Positions 3,662 through 60,757 of a stretch of DNA of 64,000 nt are shown here, one piece after another. Origin of the DNA: an uncultured Pseudomonadota bacterium (lineage in GTDB: Bacteria; Oederibacteriota; Muellerivitia; Muellerivitales; Muellerivitaceae). Under the pieces are notes generated by a model. The model was not told where the DNA came from. It saw nothing but the letters and a program-made list of their open reading frames with translations, and did not search any database. Made by a program: the position numbers and the translations under genes. The stretch's first letter is position 1. Every line of letters begins with the position of its first letter. Where the stretch lies: assembly GCA_963770835.1 (NCBI GenBank), contig CAVYRH010000003.1:1-64000 (forward strand), given 5' to 3'.

Positions 3662-3678
3662 GGGACCCATCGTGGACA

Positions 3679-4478
3679 TCGTGCCAGAGGAGGGTTTGCA
3701 GAGCCAGCAGGTGAGGGAGTAGGCCGATGAGGGTCAACCCAAGTCCTGACCAGGTAATCACCAGAGAGCCTGGAAGTCAGCCCCCGGCGTAGGATCGAGA
3801 GGTCCTGCCCGAAACGGGGTCATAAACCTCATTTAGTGAGGGAACAATCCAGCAGTCCGCAACATCAAGTGAATCCTGCCGCTTCGTGAATGGGACACCG
3901 AAAGGTGCAAGGGGATGCCGAGCCGCGTGTCTACTGGCGAAGGCCACGATCCCGCTGAAGAATCTGGTAGCAAGCGGGGCAAGTCCTCCGGAGTATGGGG
4001 AACGGAATGTTGGAAAGGCTATGCAAGCAAGCTGGGAGATCCTACCCGCCAAAAGACTTGCCGCTATAAGGCTAAAACCGAAAAGAGGCAAGGGTGGGAG
4101 GAAGTCGGAGGGGGTCACAGTACCGATGAAGGGGTGGACAACAAAACCACCCTGAGGGAAGGACCCCTGCTTCAACCATGTGTCTCAAAGAAGGTAGGCG
4201 CTGGAGCATGCCCCAAAAGGGCCAACAACTCTGTAGTACCAAAGCGCGAGGCCTTTGACAACAGGCACTATGCCGAGCGGCCAAGGGGGAAGTCGAACCT
4301 GTAAAGCCGCCGGAGGAGAGGTTGTCGGAAAGCCGTATGATCGAAAAGGTCACGTACGGTTTGACGAGGGGGCGCTGGAAACGAAGTGATGAGGGAACCT
4401 CGTTGGGGCACGGAACCGGAAACGGGGAAACAGATCAAGGAACCCTCTGCACACCATCGCGCCAGTGCTCTACTCTGC
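3679..4478 (+). mobile_element. ORF-less group II intron family B, copy 1 (800 bp)
   Basis: Domain V AAGCCGTATGATCGAAAAGGTCACGTACGGTT; homologous to both ends of the RT-bearing element at 39444-42944; same sequence at 38312-39111. Confidence 0.88.
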
Positions 4479-14920: not shown

Positions 14921-14948
14921 TGTCCACGACAGGGACCCGTCGTGGACG
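14921..14948 (+). repeat. 28-bp 11-6-11 site
   Basis: TGTCCACGACA-GGGACC-CGTCGTGGACG. Confidence 0.9.
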
Positions 14949-39990: not shown

Positions 39991-41513
39991 GATATGAATG
40001 AGCCAGTCAAGCCCGCTGGTTTTTCCTTTGGTTTTATCCTACTCTTTTCCACCTCAAGGCCCTGCGAAAAGCCCTGATCTCGAAAGCCCGGCTTGTTTCG
40101 ACGATGAATCAAACTGATATTCGCGTGTTAGACCCATTGCTGGTTCCAGGGACGCAAGATTTTCATTCGTCGGGAGCTGCCTCGATCTCTGATCGTGGGT
40201 CGTCGCAGGCTTAGGCCTTTGCGCCACAGAGTTGTACCGAGGGTTCTCCAAATCGTTGCCAAGCTTCCGGAAACAGGGTTCTTCCTTCATGACCTTGTTA
40301 AACCATTCCTGTTGTTTCCTGGGCGATGGCCCACACAAATCCAGCCAACTCCCGGGCTACGGCCACCACTACTTTTTGGATGGGCTTGTTACGTTGGGTC
40401 ATTTTTAGAAACTTTTTGTACAGACGATCCTGTGCTCTGCGGGCGATCTTTAAAATCTCCACCGGACAACCCTCCCGCCTTTTTTCTAAAACCACGCCGA
40501 CCGACTTCCCATGGCGGTAACTCCAAGCCGATTCCACAAGAATCCGTCTCAAATGGGCGTTCCCGGTCTTGGTGATTCCTCCCCGACGGATTTTTCCACC
40601 TGAACTGCTTTCACATATCCCCAAACCCGCGTAACCCATGAAATTACGAGCGCTCTCAAATCGCCTCAAATCTTGGCCTTCCACCGCCAAGGTCATGGCG
40701 CTCAAGGTATCAACCCCTTTCAGGCACCTCAAATGCTTGACCAGTTTCCTGTAGGGTTCTTGGCTGGCCATCTCCTCCACTCGGCTCGTCAAACTCCTCA
40801 ACCGCTCATCTGCCTCTTGCTTCCCGCGGACATATGCCTCGAAAGTCTCATGCAGTTCCAGAGGTTCGAACTTTTGGGTTTTCAGCCATGCCTCATGGGC
40901 TGATCTCCAATTCTTAGCTTCTCGAAAGATACGACCTTGCCGAAGAAAGAAATTCGACAACCGGTGCCGGGCCTTTTGCCGGTCTTCTAGGGCATCCTCA
41001 CGAACTCGAACCAGATCCCGACAGGCTTCCTCTTGGATGGTCGGAACCCGCACTTCCGTCAGCTCTCCCGCCCTCCAAAGACGGGCCAACTTTTCCGCAT
41101 CTCGGCGGTCTGTCTTCACCCGATCCCCGGCTTTCACTGGAATTTTCCCAGGGGCGATTACGACGCACTTCAACCCCTTTTGGGTTAATTGCCGGTGGAT
41201 GTCATATCCACAAGGGCCCGCCTCGTACACAAACGTTATTGACCCTCGTCCTTCGTACTTACCCAGCATTTTCCCCAATGCTTTTGGGGTGTTCTCGATT
41301 GTAAAAATATCCTTCACATTTTCGGCCCTAGCCGGCAGGACCGCACCTACCACCGTATCCTTATGGACATCCAACCCGACCACCGTGATATTATTTTCCA
41401 TGAGCCAGCCCTCCGTATGCGGATAGGCTCCCTCAAGGAGCAACCCGCGAATTAGGGCCCTTCAACAAGGCCCGTTTTATTTTACGCAGGCCGCTGGCTC
41501 ATTCATGTTATCT
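39991..41513 (-). mobile_element. IS110-family (IS1111-like) element 1
   Basis: 13-bp subterminal inverted repeats ATGAATGAGCCAG/CTGGCTCATTCAT; CT core at both junctions; about 300-bp non-coding region 3' of the transposase. Confidence 0.9.
40298..41443 (-). CDS. IS110-family DEDD transposase/recombinase
   Basis: VGLDVHK, YEAGPCG, KTDRRDA, SSGG, ITKTGNAHLR, VVAVAREL. Confidence 0.95.
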   Translation of the reverse strand: MLLEGAYPHTEGWLMENNITVVGLDVHKDTVVGAVLPARAENVKDIFTIENTPKALGKMLGKYEGRGSITFVYEAGPCGYDIHRQLTQKGLKCVVIAPGKIPVKAGDRVKTDRRDAEKLARLWRAGELTEVRVPTIQEEACRDLVRVREDALEDRQKARHRLSNFFLRQGRIFREAKNWRSAHEAWLKTQKFEPLELHETFEAYVRGKQEADERLRSLTSRVEEMASQEPYRKLVKHLRCLKGVDTLSAMTLAVEGQDLRRFESARNFMGYAGLGICESSSGGKIRRGGITKTGNAHLRRILVESAWSYRHGKSVGVVLEKRREGCPVEILKIARRAQDRLYKKFLKMTQRNKPIQKVVVAVARELAGFVWAIAQETTGMV

Positions 41514-45299: not shown

Positions 45300-45327
45300 T
45301 GTCCGCGACGGGGACCCATCGTGGACA
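45300..45327 (+). repeat. 28-bp 11-6-11 site (IS target)
   Basis: TGTCCGCGACG-GGGACC-CATCGTGGACA. Confidence 0.9.
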
Positions 45328-45395
45328 GGTAACATGATGGCCATTCCACCGCCGGGATTAAACTATTCCCGGTGAGTAGCCACTCATAAGGAGGA

Positions 45396-46472
45396 ATGAC
45401 CATGAAACAGATTAGCAAAAAAGGATTCCAAGGCAAGGAGGTATCCAAGCGGGACGCCGTGTTTGTGGGGCTCGATGTCCACAAACGAAGTATTTACGTA
45501 GCAATCAGGATCAATGGAAAGGAAACCGGAACCAAGTCTGTGCCCGCGGATTGGGAAGCTGTGGTGAAGGTTCTGGAGCCTTACCGAAAAGGGTTAAAAA
45601 AGGTCGTCTACGAGGCAGGACCTACTGGCTTTGGCTTGGCACGTCGCCTTCGGGAAGTGGGATACCCATTGGACGTCATCGCCCCGAACAAAACACCTCG
45701 TGTAGCTCAGTTGGAAACAAAATCCGACCGGTTGGACTGCCGCAAGCTGGCGGAGTACGCCGAAAAGGATCTCTTGCGGGCTGTGGCGATCCCAACCCTC
45801 CAGGAAGAAGCGGATCGGCAAGTGGTGCGTTTGAGAAACGCGATGGTGGAACAAAAACGCAAGGCCAAACAAAGGATCAAAAGCTTTTTCCTCCAATATG
45901 GATTCAAGGAACCTAGAGGGCTGGATTACTGGACCCACGAGGCCATCGGAGTTTTGCGGGATATGGAACTGCCGCCGGCCCTGAGATTCACGTTGGATAG
46001 CCTATTGGAAGATCTCTTTTACTTTGATAGGCAGCTTAAAGACGTGAACATACGTTTGCGGGTCATGATGAAGGACAAGGCCTACGAGAAAAAGGCTAAG
46101 ATCCTCAGGTCCCACCCGGGAGTGGGTGAAGTAACGACCCTGCAAATGTTAACGGAGATTTACCAGCCGGAGCGCTTTCAAAACGCCAAACAGGTGGCGG
46201 CTTACGTGGGGTTGGCCCCAAGGATCAGGCAAAGCGGAGAAACTCGAAAGGAAGGCCATTTGCAGAAGGCCGGAAAAGGAACCTTGAGGGCTACCTTAGT
46301 TGAAGCTGCCTGGTCATGGATTCAAAAGGATACCCAGGCCAACCGCGTTTTCCGCCGGTTCGTCCGTAATACGGGGCATGTCAACAAAGCGATTGTGGCA
46401 ATGGCTCACAAGCTTTTGATTCACCTTTGGACTATGTTGGTTCGAAAGGAAGTTTATCGGCCCATGCTCTAA
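45396..46472 (+). CDS. IS110-family DEDD transposase/recombinase
   Basis: VGLDVHK, YEAGPTG, KSDRLDC, PGVG, GLAPRIRQSG, AIVAMAHKL. Confidence 0.95.
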   Translation: MTMKQISKKGFQGKEVSKRDAVFVGLDVHKRSIYVAIRINGKETGTKSVPADWEAVVKVLEPYRKGLKKVVYEAGPTGFGLARRLREVGYPLDVIAPNKTPRVAQLETKSDRLDCRKLAEYAEKDLLRAVAIPTLQEEADRQVVRLRNAMVEQKRKAKQRIKSFFLQYGFKEPRGLDYWTHEAIGVLRDMELPPALRFTLDSLLEDLFYFDRQLKDVNIRLRVMMKDKAYEKKAKILRSHPGVGEVTTLQMLTEIYQPERFQNAKQVAAYVGLAPRIRQSGETRKEGHLQKAGKGTLRATLVEAAWSWIQKDTQANRVFRRFVRNTGHVNKAIVAMAHKLLIHLWTMLVRKEVYRPML

Positions 46473-46660
46473 AGAGGTTTCAGCCTCAGTTTCGTGATTC
46501 GACCCCTTAGGAATGACCACGAGTTTTAGCTGTGCCTTAGGCACGTTGGACAGGTGGTGGCTTCCCTCAGGATTATCGAATTCTTATCTTGTGCCTCGAG
46601 CACGAATAGCAGCGTGAATCCACGAAACCAAAAGGCTGACCGTAGGAGAAAATTGGACTT
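46473..46660 (+). ncRNA. Putative bridge/seek RNA of IS element 2
   Basis: Two repeated GTGC-N5-GCAC hairpins, each flanked by segments matching the target (TGGACAG) or donor junction (ATAGCAG). Confidence 0.7.
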
Positions 46661-46748
46661 GAGGAATGGCCTCATAGCAGGAATGGCCTCATAGCAGGTA
46701 AAATTGGCTCAGCTGGGGGTTGGTCAACATGACCTGGGGGGATAAAAA

Positions 46749-47144
46749 ATGGAAGATTTGAAAGAAATCGCCCAAACGATATGCCGGTACCCCCTCATAT
46801 CGGACAAATCGATTCAAGATTATTTAAAAGAATCCGGATTTATGGACCACCGGAAGAACATTTGTGTTGAAGACTTCAAAGAATATTTAGAAGGCCACAA
46901 GGATTTAATAGATAAATGGATTGGGTGGTCAGACAAACGAACGGATTTTGGGTGGACATTCAGCAGTTGGGGGCAGGATGGATATTATCGGATCACTGGA
47001 TATGGCATCAAAGATCCCAAACCGAATCTGGGCCATGAATTAACATTTAAAAGTTCAATTGATGCGGTTGCGACCTATATCAGTCTCGAAATGAATGCTT
47101 GGGCTCAGTTTAACGAAAATAAGCAACCCGGAAAATGGTGGTAA
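46749..47144 (+). CDS. Hypothetical protein (131 aa)
   Basis: G-rich RBS; ORF ends 22 bp before a 28-bp site. Confidence 0.68.
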   Translation: MEDLKEIAQTICRYPLISDKSIQDYLKESGFMDHRKNICVEDFKEYLEGHKDLIDKWIGWSDKRTDFGWTFSSWGQDGYYRITGYGIKDPKPNLGHELTFKSSIDAVATYISLEMNAWAQFNENKQPGKWW

Positions 47145-47166
47145 CGGATTTTTGATAGTTCATGGT

Positions 47167-47194
47167 TGTCCGCGACGGGGACCCTTCGTGAACA
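47167..47194 (+). repeat. 28-bp 11-6-11 site preceding cas1
   Basis: TGTCCGCGACG-GGGACC-CTTCGTGAACA. Confidence 0.85.
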
Positions 47195-47268
47195 ACGAAA
47201 ATAATGGATAATGGTATTCAGGCACTTTCAGCATAAAGATGGTTTACAAAATTTGGGGGGCAGACCAC

Positions 47269-48279
47269 ATGGACTTGCTTATTGATACTTACGGTACCAA
47301 GATCGGCGTAAATGGCGAGCGCATCGTCCTTTCTTTTCCGAAAGTTAAAGAGAAAAAAGAATACCCCATCCATAGACTGGAGAAAATAGTCATACTGCGG
47401 CCGGCCTCGCTCACGACTCACGCGGTTCAGCTCGCGATTGAGCACGATGTTGATATCGTCTATCTCGGTTCTTTTGGCAAGCCCATCGGAAGACTATTTT
47501 CAAGCGAACCAAAAGGGCTGGCGAGTCTTCGTAAAGCGCAACTGGAAGCGTCAACTTCGCTTGAGCGATCGTTCAAAATCGCGAAAGAATTAGTGCGGGG
47601 CAAATGCGCTAATCAGCTCGATCTACTCCGATATCTCGCGTACCGATATAAAAAGGATGTGGGGACCGAACTCTTACAAGCGCAGACCCTTTTTGATGTC
47701 TTGGACAATGTCCCGTGTTCGGAGAAAGGCAAGGAGCAACTCCTTGGTACGGAAGGATACATCGCGGACAAATATTTCAGCGGGTTAAAAAAATTCTATA
47801 GATTCCCGGGCCGAAAACCACAAGGCAGGGACCAGTTTAACAGCGTACTGAATTATGGTTAGGGCATCCTTTACAATGAAGTCGAACGGGCATGCCTTTA
47901 CGTCGGTCTTGATCCATATCTCGGCCTCTACCACAGTGAACGCTATGGTAAGCCTGCCCTCGTTCTCGATCTTGTCGAAGAATTCCGCGTACCAATCGTC
48001 GACTCGGTGCTTTTCCCGCTTTTCATAGAAAAGAAACTGAGCCAACGGAAATATTTTGAAAAAACCGCGGTTGGGCAATATCTGTTATCGCCTGAGGGAA
48101 AAAGCGTCGTGGTGGGGGCGATCATGAGGCGGTTGAATGAAACGACGGCATGGCGGGGGAAACAATATACTCTTAAGCAGATCATAGATAACCAGATTAG
48201 GGCGTTGGCACGTCACTTTGTCGAAAAGGAGGACAAGTACAACCCGTTTCGTGCGGAAAAACTTTTTTCGATATCATGA
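47269..48279 (+). pseudogene. cas1: CRISPR-associated integrase Cas1 with a premature TAG at 47860-47862
   Basis: LLGTEG, DQFNSVLNYG(Y)GILY, GLDPYLGLYH, LVLDLVEEFR; the second copy has TAC at the same codon. Confidence 0.92.
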
Positions 48280-48611
48280 ACAATTTCAATGCCATCACCC
48301 TAGTATCGTGGGAAACGCGCGACTGGCGGCATCGGGACAAGGCGGTTCTGTGGTGCAAGAATTATGGTCTCAAGCCGGTTTTCCGGAATATGTATATCGG
48401 AAAATTGTATTCAAAAGAACGGGAAAAACTCGAGAATAAATTCAAGGGGGCTTTCGCAAAGAAGACCGAAAAGTTTTTTATCAGTACGCTCTGTCGGTCG
48501 TGCTTTGAAGATTCGGTTTTCGGTGGTACGCTTAGTTCTAAGAAAGATGATGTCGACATTGAAACTGCGTTTGAACTTATCCAAATCACGCCGAATTCGG
48601 CGGAACGGTGA
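48276..48611 (+). CDS. cas2: Divergent Cas2-like protein
   Basis: Overlaps the cas1 stop (ATGA); Cas2-like pattern LVSWET, CKNYGLKPV, YIGKL, LCRSCF; canonical YDI replaced by WET. Confidence 0.72.
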   Translation: MNNFNAITLVSWETRDWRHRDKAVLWCKNYGLKPVFRNMYIGKLYSKEREKLENKFKGAFAKKTEKFFISTLCRSCFEDSVFGGTLSSKKDDVDIETAFELIQITPNSAER

Positions 48612-48633
48612 AAAACACCAATAATTGCAGGCT

Positions 48634-48815: not shown

Positions 48816-49643
48816 ATGAAAACCAGAGAGAATATACAATTACAACCATTTTTAAAATGGGCTGGCGGTAAACGTTGGCTGGTTTCTAAATACTCAAAAA
48901 TATTTTTAAAACCGTTTAATACTTATTTTGAACCATTCCTGGGTAGTGGGGCGGTGTTTTTCCACTTAAAACCAAAAAAATCAGTTCTTTCAGATGTTAA
49001 TAAAGACTTAATCGATACGTTTCGTGCGATAAGGAATAATTGGAAAGGTGTTGTAAGTGAATTGAAGAAGCATAATTCGAAACATTCCACAAATTACTAT
49101 TACAAAATGAGAGATTGGAAGCCCAATTCCGCCAATAAAAAAGCTGCACTTTTTATTTATTTAAATCGCACTTGTTGGAATGCTTTGTATAGGGTTAATA
49201 AAGAGGGGAAGTTTAATGTCCCTATTGGAACGAAATTAAATGTTTTACTTGAAACGGATGATTTTGAAGCAGTTTCTAATGCCCTAAAAAATGTAACATT
49301 CAAAGACGGAGATTTTGAACATATTTTAGATACGGCAAAAAAAGGGGATTTCATTTACCTTGATCCGCCTTATACGGTTACACATTCAAATAACGGATTT
49401 ATTAAGTACAATAATCATATTTTCAAATGGGAAGATCAATGCCGACTAGCAAGTGTTTCAAAAGATTTGATAAACCGCGGCTGTGCAGTTGTTATAAGCA
49501 ATGCTTATCACAACAGTATCTTTGATTTATATAAAGGGTTTTACTATTTGGGTTTGAAACGCCACAGCCTTTTAGCCGCCGATCCAAGGAAAAGAGGAGA
49601 TTATAAAGAGTGCCTTTTTTCGTCTTTCCCAATCAAAATTTGA
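48816..49643 (+). CDS. Dam-family DNA adenine methyltransferase
   Basis: FLKWAGGK, EPFLGSGAV, FIYLDPPY. Confidence 0.93.
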   Translation: MKTRENIQLQPFLKWAGGKRWLVSKYSKIFLKPFNTYFEPFLGSGAVFFHLKPKKSVLSDVNKDLIDTFRAIRNNWKGVVSELKKHNSKHSTNYYYKMRDWKPNSANKKAALFIYLNRTCWNALYRVNKEGKFNVPIGTKLNVLLETDDFEAVSNALKNVTFKDGDFEHILDTAKKGDFIYLDPPYTVTHSNNGFIKYNNHIFKWEDQCRLASVSKDLINRGCAVVISNAYHNSIFDLYKGFYYLGLKRHSLLAADPRKRGDYKECLFSSFPIKI

Positions 49644-49655
49644 CGGGAGTTTACA

Positions 49656-50630
49656 ATGGCCGATGAAAATGTTTTTGGTGGATTCCTTTTACAAGAAAAA
49701 CCCCCAATTTATTTAGCTGCAATACCAGGAAAATGGTTGTTAAAACACACAACTCCTTCTTGGCGATTAGAAAATCCAGAAGAAGGTTTTCAAAGAGTTG
49801 TCCAAGAAAAAAGGGCTAGAGAAATAGCGACTGCTGTTTTAAATCAAAAACGAATATTTCCAAACGCAATTGTTTTAGCTACGGATATTCAAAATTTCGA
49901 GGCACGAAAAGGCGAGATAAGCATTGGAAATAGGATTAAATTTCTTGTTGTTGATGGGCAACATAGGTTGTGGGCTCAAAAATTTTCAGAATTTGAGGCT
50001 ATATATGCTTGCACCATTCATTGTGGCCTTGATGAAGTAAAAATGGCGGAATTATTTATCGAGATTAACAACAACCAGAAACGGGTTCCGTCTTCTCTTC
50101 GCTGGGATCTTGTTAGATTGGTTAGGCCGGATGAGGATCCATTTGGAATTGAAGCATCTGAACTTGTTTTTGAATTGGCGACAAATGAATCGAGCCCCTT
50201 ATATCAAAGGATTGATTTAACGGGAGAACAAAACGAAATCAGTTTGAAACAAGGTTCTATTGCTCCTGAATTCAAACATATTTTTTCTTTAAGAGATTCC
50301 CCATTCAAAGATTTAAATTTTGAAGTGGTTGTTGACAGCATCATTAAGTATTTGGCTGCAATTAAATCAATGGATGCTGATGGTTGGAAAAAAGGGAAAT
50401 CTGCTTTTTACCAGGCTAGGGTATTAAGGGTTTTAATAAAAATATTACCTGAGATCATTAAAAAAGAAGGAGTCGATGTTTCGAAAATAACAGCAATTTC
50501 CTATAAAAACCACTTGGAAAAAATTAAAGAGAATAAAATCACAAGAGAAGCTTTGACGGCTCAACATGGGAATTCGGGCATTAAAGCTATTTATGATGAG
50601 ATACATTCTCAAATATTTGGTAGAAGTTAA
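49656..50630 (+). CDS. DGQHR-domain protein (DndB/ParB-like)
   Basis: FQR, FPNAIVL, VVDGQHR, FIEINNNQK. Confidence 0.88.
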   Translation: MADENVFGGFLLQEKPPIYLAAIPGKWLLKHTTPSWRLENPEEGFQRVVQEKRAREIATAVLNQKRIFPNAIVLATDIQNFEARKGEISIGNRIKFLVVDGQHRLWAQKFSEFEAIYACTIHCGLDEVKMAELFIEINNNQKRVPSSLRWDLVRLVRPDEDPFGIEASELVFELATNESSPLYQRIDLTGEQNEISLKQGSIAPEFKHIFSLRDSPFKDLNFEVVVDSIIKYLAAIKSMDADGWKKGKSAFYQARVLRVLIKILPEIIKKEGVDVSKITAISYKNHLEKIKENKITREALTAQHGNSGIKAIYDEIHSQIFGRS

Positions 50631-51499
50631 TGAATTTATTTGATTTTTCTCAAGCGCAATATTTTTGTGGCAGTCATGTTTCGGCTTTGAGAAATCGGTC
50701 CGTTGGGCTGCGGAACTTCTTTGTGGCTCGGCCTAGAACCTTAAATTTATTAAGAGAGGGGACGCCTGAATATAATGAGTTTCGGGATGGTCTTTTGTGT
50801 GATATCGAAAGAAATTTATTTTTATCAATCTCACTTTATAGAAGATCTTTAGATTTAATGATGACCAGCTCGGCTAGTTGGGCTTTTGTTACCCTTTATT
50901 ACAGTTCGTTTCATGCAGCGTCAGCAATTATGGGGTTGTTCGGGGGAGTCTCAAAGGTTCCTGAATATATTGTCGATGTCGTTAGAGGAAACTCTGGGCG
51001 GCAAGAGCTGCGAATAATTAGAAATCTTGGTAATAATCAAAGGATATTAAGAAATTTTTCTGCATACAATGGTCCGCACAGAGTTTTTTGGGACATATTT
51101 TACCCATCAAGCGCTGGATTAACTGCATGGATTCCTGATCAAAGTTTACATATTGCATTGACCCCGGTTAGTAATGATCGGTTATGGCAAATTAACAATA
51201 GAAATGATTTGAATTATAACTCCCTTGATTCATTGGAGGTTTGCAAAAGTTTTGAGAATAACTTTAATTCCACAAATTTCCCCAGTTCCCTTCCTGGCGT
51301 TTTAAGTACCCAATTTTCAATAACTGAAGCAATGATTCTTACGGCTGTCTTTTTTTCTAAAGAATTTAATTTGGGAACCGACTCCTTGAAAAACCTTAAT
51401 CCTGCTGGCGCGAGAGAAACGAAATTGCGGAATTTAATCCGGGATGGTGTATTGCCTGATTTGGCACAGAAATCTAAAATCGCAGAAATGATATCTTGA
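50630..51499 (+). CDS. Hypothetical protein with HEPN-like motifs
   Basis: WAFVTLYYSSFHAASAI and RNDLNY. Confidence 0.55.
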   Translation: MNLFDFSQAQYFCGSHVSALRNRSVGLRNFFVARPRTLNLLREGTPEYNEFRDGLLCDIERNLFLSISLYRRSLDLMMTSSASWAFVTLYYSSFHAASAIMGLFGGVSKVPEYIVDVVRGNSGRQELRIIRNLGNNQRILRNFSAYNGPHRVFWDIFYPSSAGLTAWIPDQSLHIALTPVSNDRLWQINNRNDLNYNSLDSLEVCKSFENNFNSTNFPSSLPGVLSTQFSITEAMILTAVFFSKEFNLGTDSLKNLNPAGARETKLRNLIRDGVLPDLAQKSKIAEMIS

Positions 51500-60720: not shown

Positions 60721-60757
60721 CCTGCACATGCCTGTCGCAAAAAGGATAGTGTGCAAC
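60721..60757 (+). CRISPR. CRISPR-like repeat 2
   Basis: Exact copy of the 37-mer, joined directly to mid-cas1 sequence. Confidence 0.72.

Follow-up and report, generated by a model that had tools for sequence, protein, structure and literature searches.

The insertion sequence and its transposase

The window analysed here, a stretch of 64,000 nucleotides, carries an insertion sequence of the IS1111 type whose protein-coding and terminal parts are located as follows.

45327-46695, plus strand: IS1111-type insertion sequence, 1,369 bp with the AG of its left end counted in
45334-45347, plus strand: left subterminal inverted repeat, 7 bp in from the left end
45396-46472, plus strand: gene for an IS110-family RNA-guided transposase of 358 aa, or 356 aa from the ATG at 45402
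46659-46664, plus strand: TTGAGG, a -35-like hexamer recognized by eye, its TTGA kept in homologue ends
46663-46696, plus strand: right end duplicated in tandem, with 17-bp units at 46663-46679 and 46680-46696
46680-46692 with the 3-bp extension AGC: outer right-end unit, adjoining the target

The transposase combines the N-terminal DEDD domain (PF01548) and the C-terminal domain (PF02371) expected of the IS110 family, both above cut-off, and scores 239.8 bits against a cut-off of 140 with NF033542, the NCBIfam model for IS110 RNA-guided transposases. Its motif residues are D27, E73, D111, D114 and S280, the last within GLAPRIRQSG, so that the GL-P----S(t)G motif of IS1111 is present; at 356-358 aa the protein slightly exceeds the quoted range of 330-350 aa. 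Among solved structures it matches ISCro4 and IS621 only. Downstream of the gene lies a non-coding span of 223 bp, against 69 bp upstream, as expected of IS1111 elements.

The two ends share a 13-bp match, the left copy with one extra base, which falls within the 11-13 bp of IS1111 subterminal inverted repeats. The terminal extensions measure 7 bp on the left (AGGTAAC) and 3 bp on the right (AGC), in agreement with the IS1111 rule given in the accessible text of PMC11187229 (repeats set in by 7 bp on the left and by 3 bp on the right); the same spacing recurs in homologues, where it also served as the anchor for locating their ends.

In the genome the element occurs in four copies that encode a complete transposase, identical in all of them, and in two that are partial. 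All five recovered left ends start AG-GTAAC, preceded by TGGAC in four cases and by AAGAC in one, and the right flanks following ATAGC are AGGTAAAA in the window, AGCTATAT and AGCTAAAA, the fourth copy having a shortened outer right end. The 17-bp right-end duplication occurs in all four complete copies, with the outer unit partly missing in one, and is absent from two 92%-identical elements (L022 and L023), the closest named records, which carry the name candidate division FCPU426. No excision footprints were found at the inner right end, since all seven unit copies in the genome sit in element ends.

The duplication also bears on expression. The distance from TTGAGG to the TAACAT of the left end would be 17 nt only in a circle closed at the inner right end; with the outer right end in use it would be 34 nt. 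The duplication would displace the hexamer by 17 bp from the junction, for which a simple junction-promoter step does not account. A promoter scan of the linear form did not detect TTGAGG, and promoter and terminator counts were at chance level. For IS621, read-through is able to supply functional RNA, according to the accessible part of PMC13626964.

A second IS110-family element occupies 39991-41513 on the minus strand. Its 381-aa ORF is 30% identical to the transposase of the first element and has seven matches at 100% identity, and six right ends and five left ends were recovered; the element has a perfect 13-bp subterminal repeat, its core is AG and its right flank does not vary (AGTTGTTGG). 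In the window it lies inside a group II intron, and guide-like segments can be seen by eye downstream of it.

Insertion site and cassette rows

The sequences bordering the element in the window are the following.

45300-45327, unstranded: 28-bp palindrome (11+6+11), one of 84 in the genome, its right arm forming the left half of the target
45322-45328, plus strand: left target flank TGGAC and AG core, identified from the sequence and from the single-AG empty site in genome G027
46696-46703, plus strand: AG core and right flank GTAAAA, the start of the next cassette, likewise identified from the sequence and from G027

AG is found at both junctions of the window copy. In G027 the downstream cassette is present twice, at 99.2% identity over 500 bases and at 93.9% (loci L069 and L071), and both cassettes are preceded by an uninterrupted TGGAC-AG-GTAAAA, that is, by an empty target with one AG. 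This empty allele shows insertion around a short core without true target duplication, as in IS110 elements. The cassette itself (46696-47167) has other neighbours in G027, where the junction falls inside the palindrome.

The palindromes stand in rows between single genes, and within the window they are found at 14922, 37687, 38285, 39417, 43455, 45301 and 47168. Four of the five left ends adjoin a palindrome, on either arm, leaving its 28 bp intact, and the elements at L001, L022 and L023 are likewise inserted beside one. No preference for palindromes beyond sequence was detected among empty sites matching at least 9/11 positions outside long ORFs: nine lie in palindromes (13 minus the four occupied junctions) and 21 do not, and a binomial computed by hand for four of five insertions at palindromes, given the available sites, yields approximately 0.07. 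The only 11/11 target site in the genome is empty and lies within an ORF. We also considered the palindrome as an integron attC and rejected this assignment: the genome contains no integron integrase above cut-off, and inspection by eye revealed no attC-type ends. The sole match to PF00239 (resolvase domain) in the genome ends beside one palindrome copy. Six similar tyrosine recombinases of 360-375 aa and of one type are encoded on contigs C1, C2, C5 (two), C10 and C26 of genome G000, none of them above the integron-integrase cut-off.

Several further features share these gene rows. An imperfect hairpin of 36-37 bp, with 27 copies on three contigs (in the window at 48633, 60720, 61838 and beyond), is interleaved with the 28-bp palindrome. 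At many sites group II introns begin three bases past the GTGGAC of the palindrome; in the window they are found from 38311 onward, from 39443 onward and at 3662-4478, two of the window copies being short. At 47239-48611, between both kinds of repeat and cassette-like in arrangement, lie a piece of a Cas1 gene (207 aa, the rest apparently in another frame) and a 111-aa ORF without family match; part of this segment recurs at 60757, and the start of its cassette also follows palindromes on contigs C15 and C16. A Dam-type methyltransferase, a DGQHR-domain protein and an unknown 289-aa ORF follow in a defence-like row at 48816-51499. At position 21013 of contig C16 (G000) a palindrome is followed by AG-GTTACATGAAGGGG, which resembles another IS1111-type left end at the equivalent position.

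Guide-like segments downstream of the transposase

An earlier note on this DNA had proposed a bridge-RNA architecture in the region 46473-46660, with a target module composed of TTTTAGCT (46524-46531), the hairpin GTGCCTTAGGCAC (46532-46544) and TGGACAG (46547-46553), and a donor module composed of TTATCT (46584-46589), the hairpin GTGCCTCGAGCAC (46591-46603) and ATAGCAG (46606-46612). All six motifs are where that note placed them, and the matches it counted, 7/8 to the right flank and 5/6 to the left end, were reproduced. TGGACAG recurs at 45322-45328 as the left flank plus AG, and ATAGCAG recurs at 46674-46680 and 46691-46697; the identification of the latter with the right end of the element is correct, with the qualification that the tandem duplication makes this end present twice. 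The second hairpin is corrected here to a stem of 4-5 bp with a 5-nt loop. After refinement against homologues, we assign the parts of the candidate RNA as follows.

46480-46639, plus strand: predicted bridge RNA of approximately 160 nt, with outer stems pairing 46480-46496 and 46621-46639 and approximate ends
46508-46567, plus strand: target-binding arm, with stems 46508-46513/46562-46567 and 46517-46520/46557-46560 around two guides and a hairpin
46524-46530, plus strand: guide A, complementary to top-strand bases on the right side of the insertion point, predicting GCTAAAA with the second core base included
46532-46544, plus strand: target-loop hairpin, from the sequence and the alignment consensus
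46547-46553, plus strand: guide B, same sequence as left flank and AG, would pair with the bottom strand
46554-46555, plus strand: predicted target-loop handshake bases, GT, equal to the left end of the element in the two bases after AG
46584-46588, plus strand: guide C, complement of the left end of the element with one G-U wobble
46590-46604, plus strand: donor-module hairpin, near-invariant among homologues
46606-46612, plus strand: guide D, identical to the right end of the element plus AG
46613, plus strand: predicted donor-module handshake base, C, the first post-core target base at matching sites

Guide A lies 5′ of guide B, so that the top-strand match comes first, which is the order of IS1111 elements. 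Since guide A predicts AGCTAAAA, the single mismatch in the 7/8 count belongs to the insertion site of the window copy and not to the guide; the copy on contig C26 is flanked by AGCTAAAA and matches at 8/8.

Chance resemblance was assessed with 20,000 dinucleotide-preserving shuffles of 46473-46660. Taken singly, the four guide-like segments were found in 2242, 359, 11,717 and 140 of the 20,000 shuffles, and jointly in none. A match at the level of TTATCT arises in 11,717 of them, and TTATCT alone is therefore no evidence.

Predicted RNA structure

Folded as a single sequence, the region shows a modest gain in stability over shuffled versions (z = -1.93; 10/200). An alignment of 15 distinct elements yields a consensus consisting of the target arm, with two stems and the hairpin, and the donor hairpin, where conservation in the alignment is highest. 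In the resulting 19-pair structure 90% of alignment cells are paired, and eight of the 19 pairs have changed on both sides. Its covariation score is 0.264, compared with 0.139 for shuffled and at most 0.085 for slid controls; these controls keep relatedness, and the structure was derived from the alignment on which it was scored. Most single folds contain the outer stem (approximately 46480-46496 paired to 46621-46639), which would place the donor guides in a junction. For the stems closing the donor module there are two alternative pairings, neither of which is fixed by covariation. No Rfam family matches the region 46473-46660. In two other IS110-family loci right-end segments are duplicated: L056 repeats the RNA region in tandem over a long stretch, and L008 has an extra right end just upstream of its left end.

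Covariation of predicted target guides with insertion sites

Of the 56 homologous loci gathered, thirty were tested; the others were incomplete matches, a pair identical to L022 and L023, and loci whose transposases are distant (approximately 36% identity or less) and whose ends differ. Four of the thirty dropped out as truncated, and the remaining 26 form 18 groups defined by identical target guides. For each guide, the agreement with the cognate flank was compared with the agreement with the flanks of other groups, and the groups were permuted 100,000 times.

Guide A agrees with the six bases right of the core at a mean of 5.44 positions for cognate and 2.56 for non-cognate flanks (17 groups; 0/100,000 permutations), and guide B with the five bases left of the core at 3.50 and 2.16, respectively (17 groups; 0/100,000). 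In sets thinned by hand the counts are 0/100,000 for guide A (12 groups) and 23/100,000 for guide B (11 groups). The groups are related to one another, and the permutation counts consequently overstate the case. Controls with swapped flanks are flat (58,598 and 11,128 of 100,000), the one for guide B having been run at an offset that differs from that of the final test.

Repeated insertions of one element conform to the same pattern. In genome G002, nine right flanks match guide A at 7/7 positions in five cases and at 6/7 in four, three of these through a G-T wobble, and six left flanks match guide B at 5/5 in five cases and at 2/5 in one. Poor fits are also present: the left flank at L002 matches at 1/5, guide A matches L022 at 5/7 and L023 at 4/7, and the window's own site has at +1 a mismatch to guide A as well as to the donor handshake base. 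In two groups (L002 and L022/L023) the G of the right-junction AG is replaced by A, and guide A shifts accordingly.

As far as the sequences tell, the predicted target loop displays the defining property of a bridge RNA, two guides that covary with both target strands. The comparison of guide segments and flanks across homologues, which the earlier note had proposed as a check, hence came out in favour of guiding. Together with the several insertion sites per element and the empty site of a relative, it also bears out the division into target and donor modules, their order and their IS1111-type location.

Putative donor guides and handshake bases

Guide C agrees with the left end at 3.79 positions for cognate and 2.59 for non-cognate pairs (14 groups; 0/100,000 permutations). 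The first post-core base is often mismatched or wobble-paired, and 12 of the 14 groups show pairing at positions +2 to +4. All 18 representatives have RNA and DNA in agreement at left-end position +4, and on the protein tree of these 18 there are four changes in the RNA and four in the DNA, all four of them joint. Guide D and the right end also agree in 18/18, with a single change on the tree (1475/100,000 permutations). The putative donor guides covary with the element ends, clearly so for guide C and on one tree change for guide D.

In IS621, once strands have been exchanged, the bases next to the core-binding guides on their 3′ side form pairs with the other DNA, according to the accessible text of PMC11208158. 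In the elements studied here, the base following the AG of guide B equals left-end position +1 in 16 of 18 groups (0/100,000 permutations), and the base following the AG of guide D equals target position +1 with a mean of 0.87 for cognate against 0.27 for non-cognate pairs (0/100,000); thinning the sets gives 22 and 11 of 100,000, respectively. On the tree, where the host genome is represented by its best-matching copy (L053) and the window copy mismatches, the donor-module base and target +1 undergo nine and eight changes, nine jointly. Within one nine-member clade the two agree in 9/9 members over three different bases, as happens in 1/756 arrangements. No covariation was detected at the second handshake position of the donor module (0.18 vs 0.24), and at that of the target loop T stands against T in the 25 loci read, so that there is no variation. 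The base after each AG thus appears to behave like the handshake guides of IS621, at the first position and in both loops.

Interpretation

The right end of this IS1111-type element likely makes a two-module bridge RNA of approximately 160 nt, with four guides for target and donor strands. Each strand of the target, and each strand of the joined element ends, would be paired by one of these short guides. By analogy with IS621 and IS1111 elements, as described in the accessible portions of PMC11208158, PMC11208160 and PMC11187229, the element would excise as a circle with the junction ATAGC-AG-GTAAC, and transposase and RNA would be co-transcribed. The target loop would open sites resembling TGGAC-AG-CTAAAA, the donor module would hold the circle junction, and the DEDD and serine active sites would cut beside the core and exchange the strands one pair per turn. 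Following the first exchange, the base after each AG may then pair with the strand coming in, a handshake favouring insertion.

Under the seekRNA model the target arm alone (approximately 46505-46570, as a processed RNA of 70-100 nt) would guide the reaction; recognition of the ends by the transposase would rely on the subterminal repeats, with a donor module that is dispensable or serves excision only. The finding that ISEc11 transposition needed only a short, target-only RNA (PMC11187229, accessible text) speaks for such an arrangement, the long subterminal repeats it calls for are present in the window element, and the donor covariation is built on few changes, four at one position and one for guide D. 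We nevertheless consider it improbable, given that guide C and left-end +4 change jointly on all four tree changes, that a donor-module base follows the target base in all nine members of one clade, and that no part of the alignment is better conserved than the donor hairpin.

The remaining accounts dispense with a guide RNA altogether. That the matches work at the DNA level or are leftovers, being duplicates of end and flank bases inside the element that stem from earlier insertions or that serve as protein-binding sites, would be in line with the weak single-sequence fold (z = -1.93) and with the one real local duplication at the right end; it is hard to reconcile with guides that are opposite in orientation (identical or complementary) and in fixed register around two hairpins, that predict the flanks of many independent insertions and whose mismatches are recurrently of the G-T wobble type, or with stems that keep pairing through double changes, and we regard it as very unlikely. 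Chance resemblance of short motifs, to which the frequency of TTATCT-level matches in shuffled sequence lends some colour, is refuted by the absence of any shuffle with all four segments and by the covariation tests on homologues, and its probability is close to nil.

A broader reading, to which we give even chances, holds that the IS621 mechanism operates in full in this IS1111-type clade, with both donor loop and handshake, and that in this host the element is programmed onto a non-integron cassette recombination site. If so, each natural retargeting would alter the target guide and, separately, one donor-module base; the view that IS1111 elements need RNA for the target only would be overturned; and the element would, as an RNA-guided parasite, be a counterpart of those IS1111 elements for which attC is the target. 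More modestly, the two-module bridge RNA favoured here offers natural evidence that IS1111-type RNAs pair with the donor as well. The clade is divergent (<38% identity to a plasmid collection) and brings 18 naturally reprogrammed guide sets, which would make it a new recombinase scaffold with a candidate design rule: a 7-nt guide A, a 5+2-nt guide B and the handshake bases. It also makes a live dispute testable, namely whether the donor half is needed (bridge model) or the target half suffices (seekRNA model). Describing the region as a compact candidate for reprogramming, as the earlier note did, is fair, without being special to it, for a transposase of 356-358 aa and a predicted RNA of approximately 160 nt are usual in the published group (PMC11187229).

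Comparison with known systems

Compared with named elements of the plasmid collection, the transposase belongs to the same protein family, with 34.0% identity to that of ISSfr2 (over 294 aa), 30.8% to ISHvo10, 29.7% to ISRel9, 28.9% to ISSso6, 27.7% to IS4321 and 26.0% to IS1000B. The best match of any kind in that collection is at 37.7% identity, and by these comparisons the window element is a copy of none of the six. In a tree of 25 proteins that includes them the deep forks are weak (70/40), with long branches leading to IS4321, IS1000B and ISRel9.

The element displays every IS1111-group sequence feature tested, and we classify it as a new divergent member of the known right-end bridge/seek RNA kind, whose mechanism is already published. 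Bridge RNAs have been predicted at the right end of 93% of IS1111 elements, such as ISCARN28, ISAzs32 and ISPa11 (PMC11208160, accessible text), often with the donor bases in a multi-loop, which is where the fold of the window RNA places them. The end and guide motifs of the present clade were not found in the searchable portion of the supplements to PMC11208160. In the literature accessible to us, donor-loop and handshake experiments concern IS621, with none found for IS1111, and bridge-recombinase papers of 2025-26 may cover the latter.

With ISEc11, ISKpn4, ISPst6 and ISPa11, as described in the accessible text of PMC11187229, the window element has in common the subterminal repeats extended by 7 and 3 bp, the downstream non-coding region, the top-strand match 5′ of the bottom-strand match and the GL-P----SG motif, the likeness being one of features and not of compared proteins. 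The long seekRNA of that group measures 145-170 nt, and approximately 160 nt are predicted here. Just as ISKpn4 and ISPst6 insert into attC and ISPa11 into REP palindromes, the window element targets a palindrome that bounds cassettes, although the target itself is a different one. In that text only target matches are described for the group; in the present element one can also read donor guides and handshake bases.

The transposases of IS621 and ISCro4 (PDB 8WT6-9 and 9T56) are distantly alike (E = 1.2e-19 and 9e-16). As judged from the accessible parts of PMC11208160 and PMC11208158, these systems resemble the predicted RNA in having a two-guide target loop and a two-guide donor module, in handshake bases that adjoin the core-binding guide on its 3′ side, and in the DEDD and Ser residues. 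IS1111 RNAs have the guide order reversed relative to the IS621 type (PMC11187229, accessible text); read on the opposite strand, the core of the window element is CT and its guide order is that of IS621. The T of this core is fixed and the C variable in the window clade, much as in IS621, whose C is the less conserved (PMC11208158, accessible text). Unlike IS621 and ISCro4, the window element has its RNA in the right end, a target reversed relative to the gene and long subterminal repeats; a short GUGC..GCAC hairpin divides each of its loops, and a multi-way junction is the likely place of its donor module.
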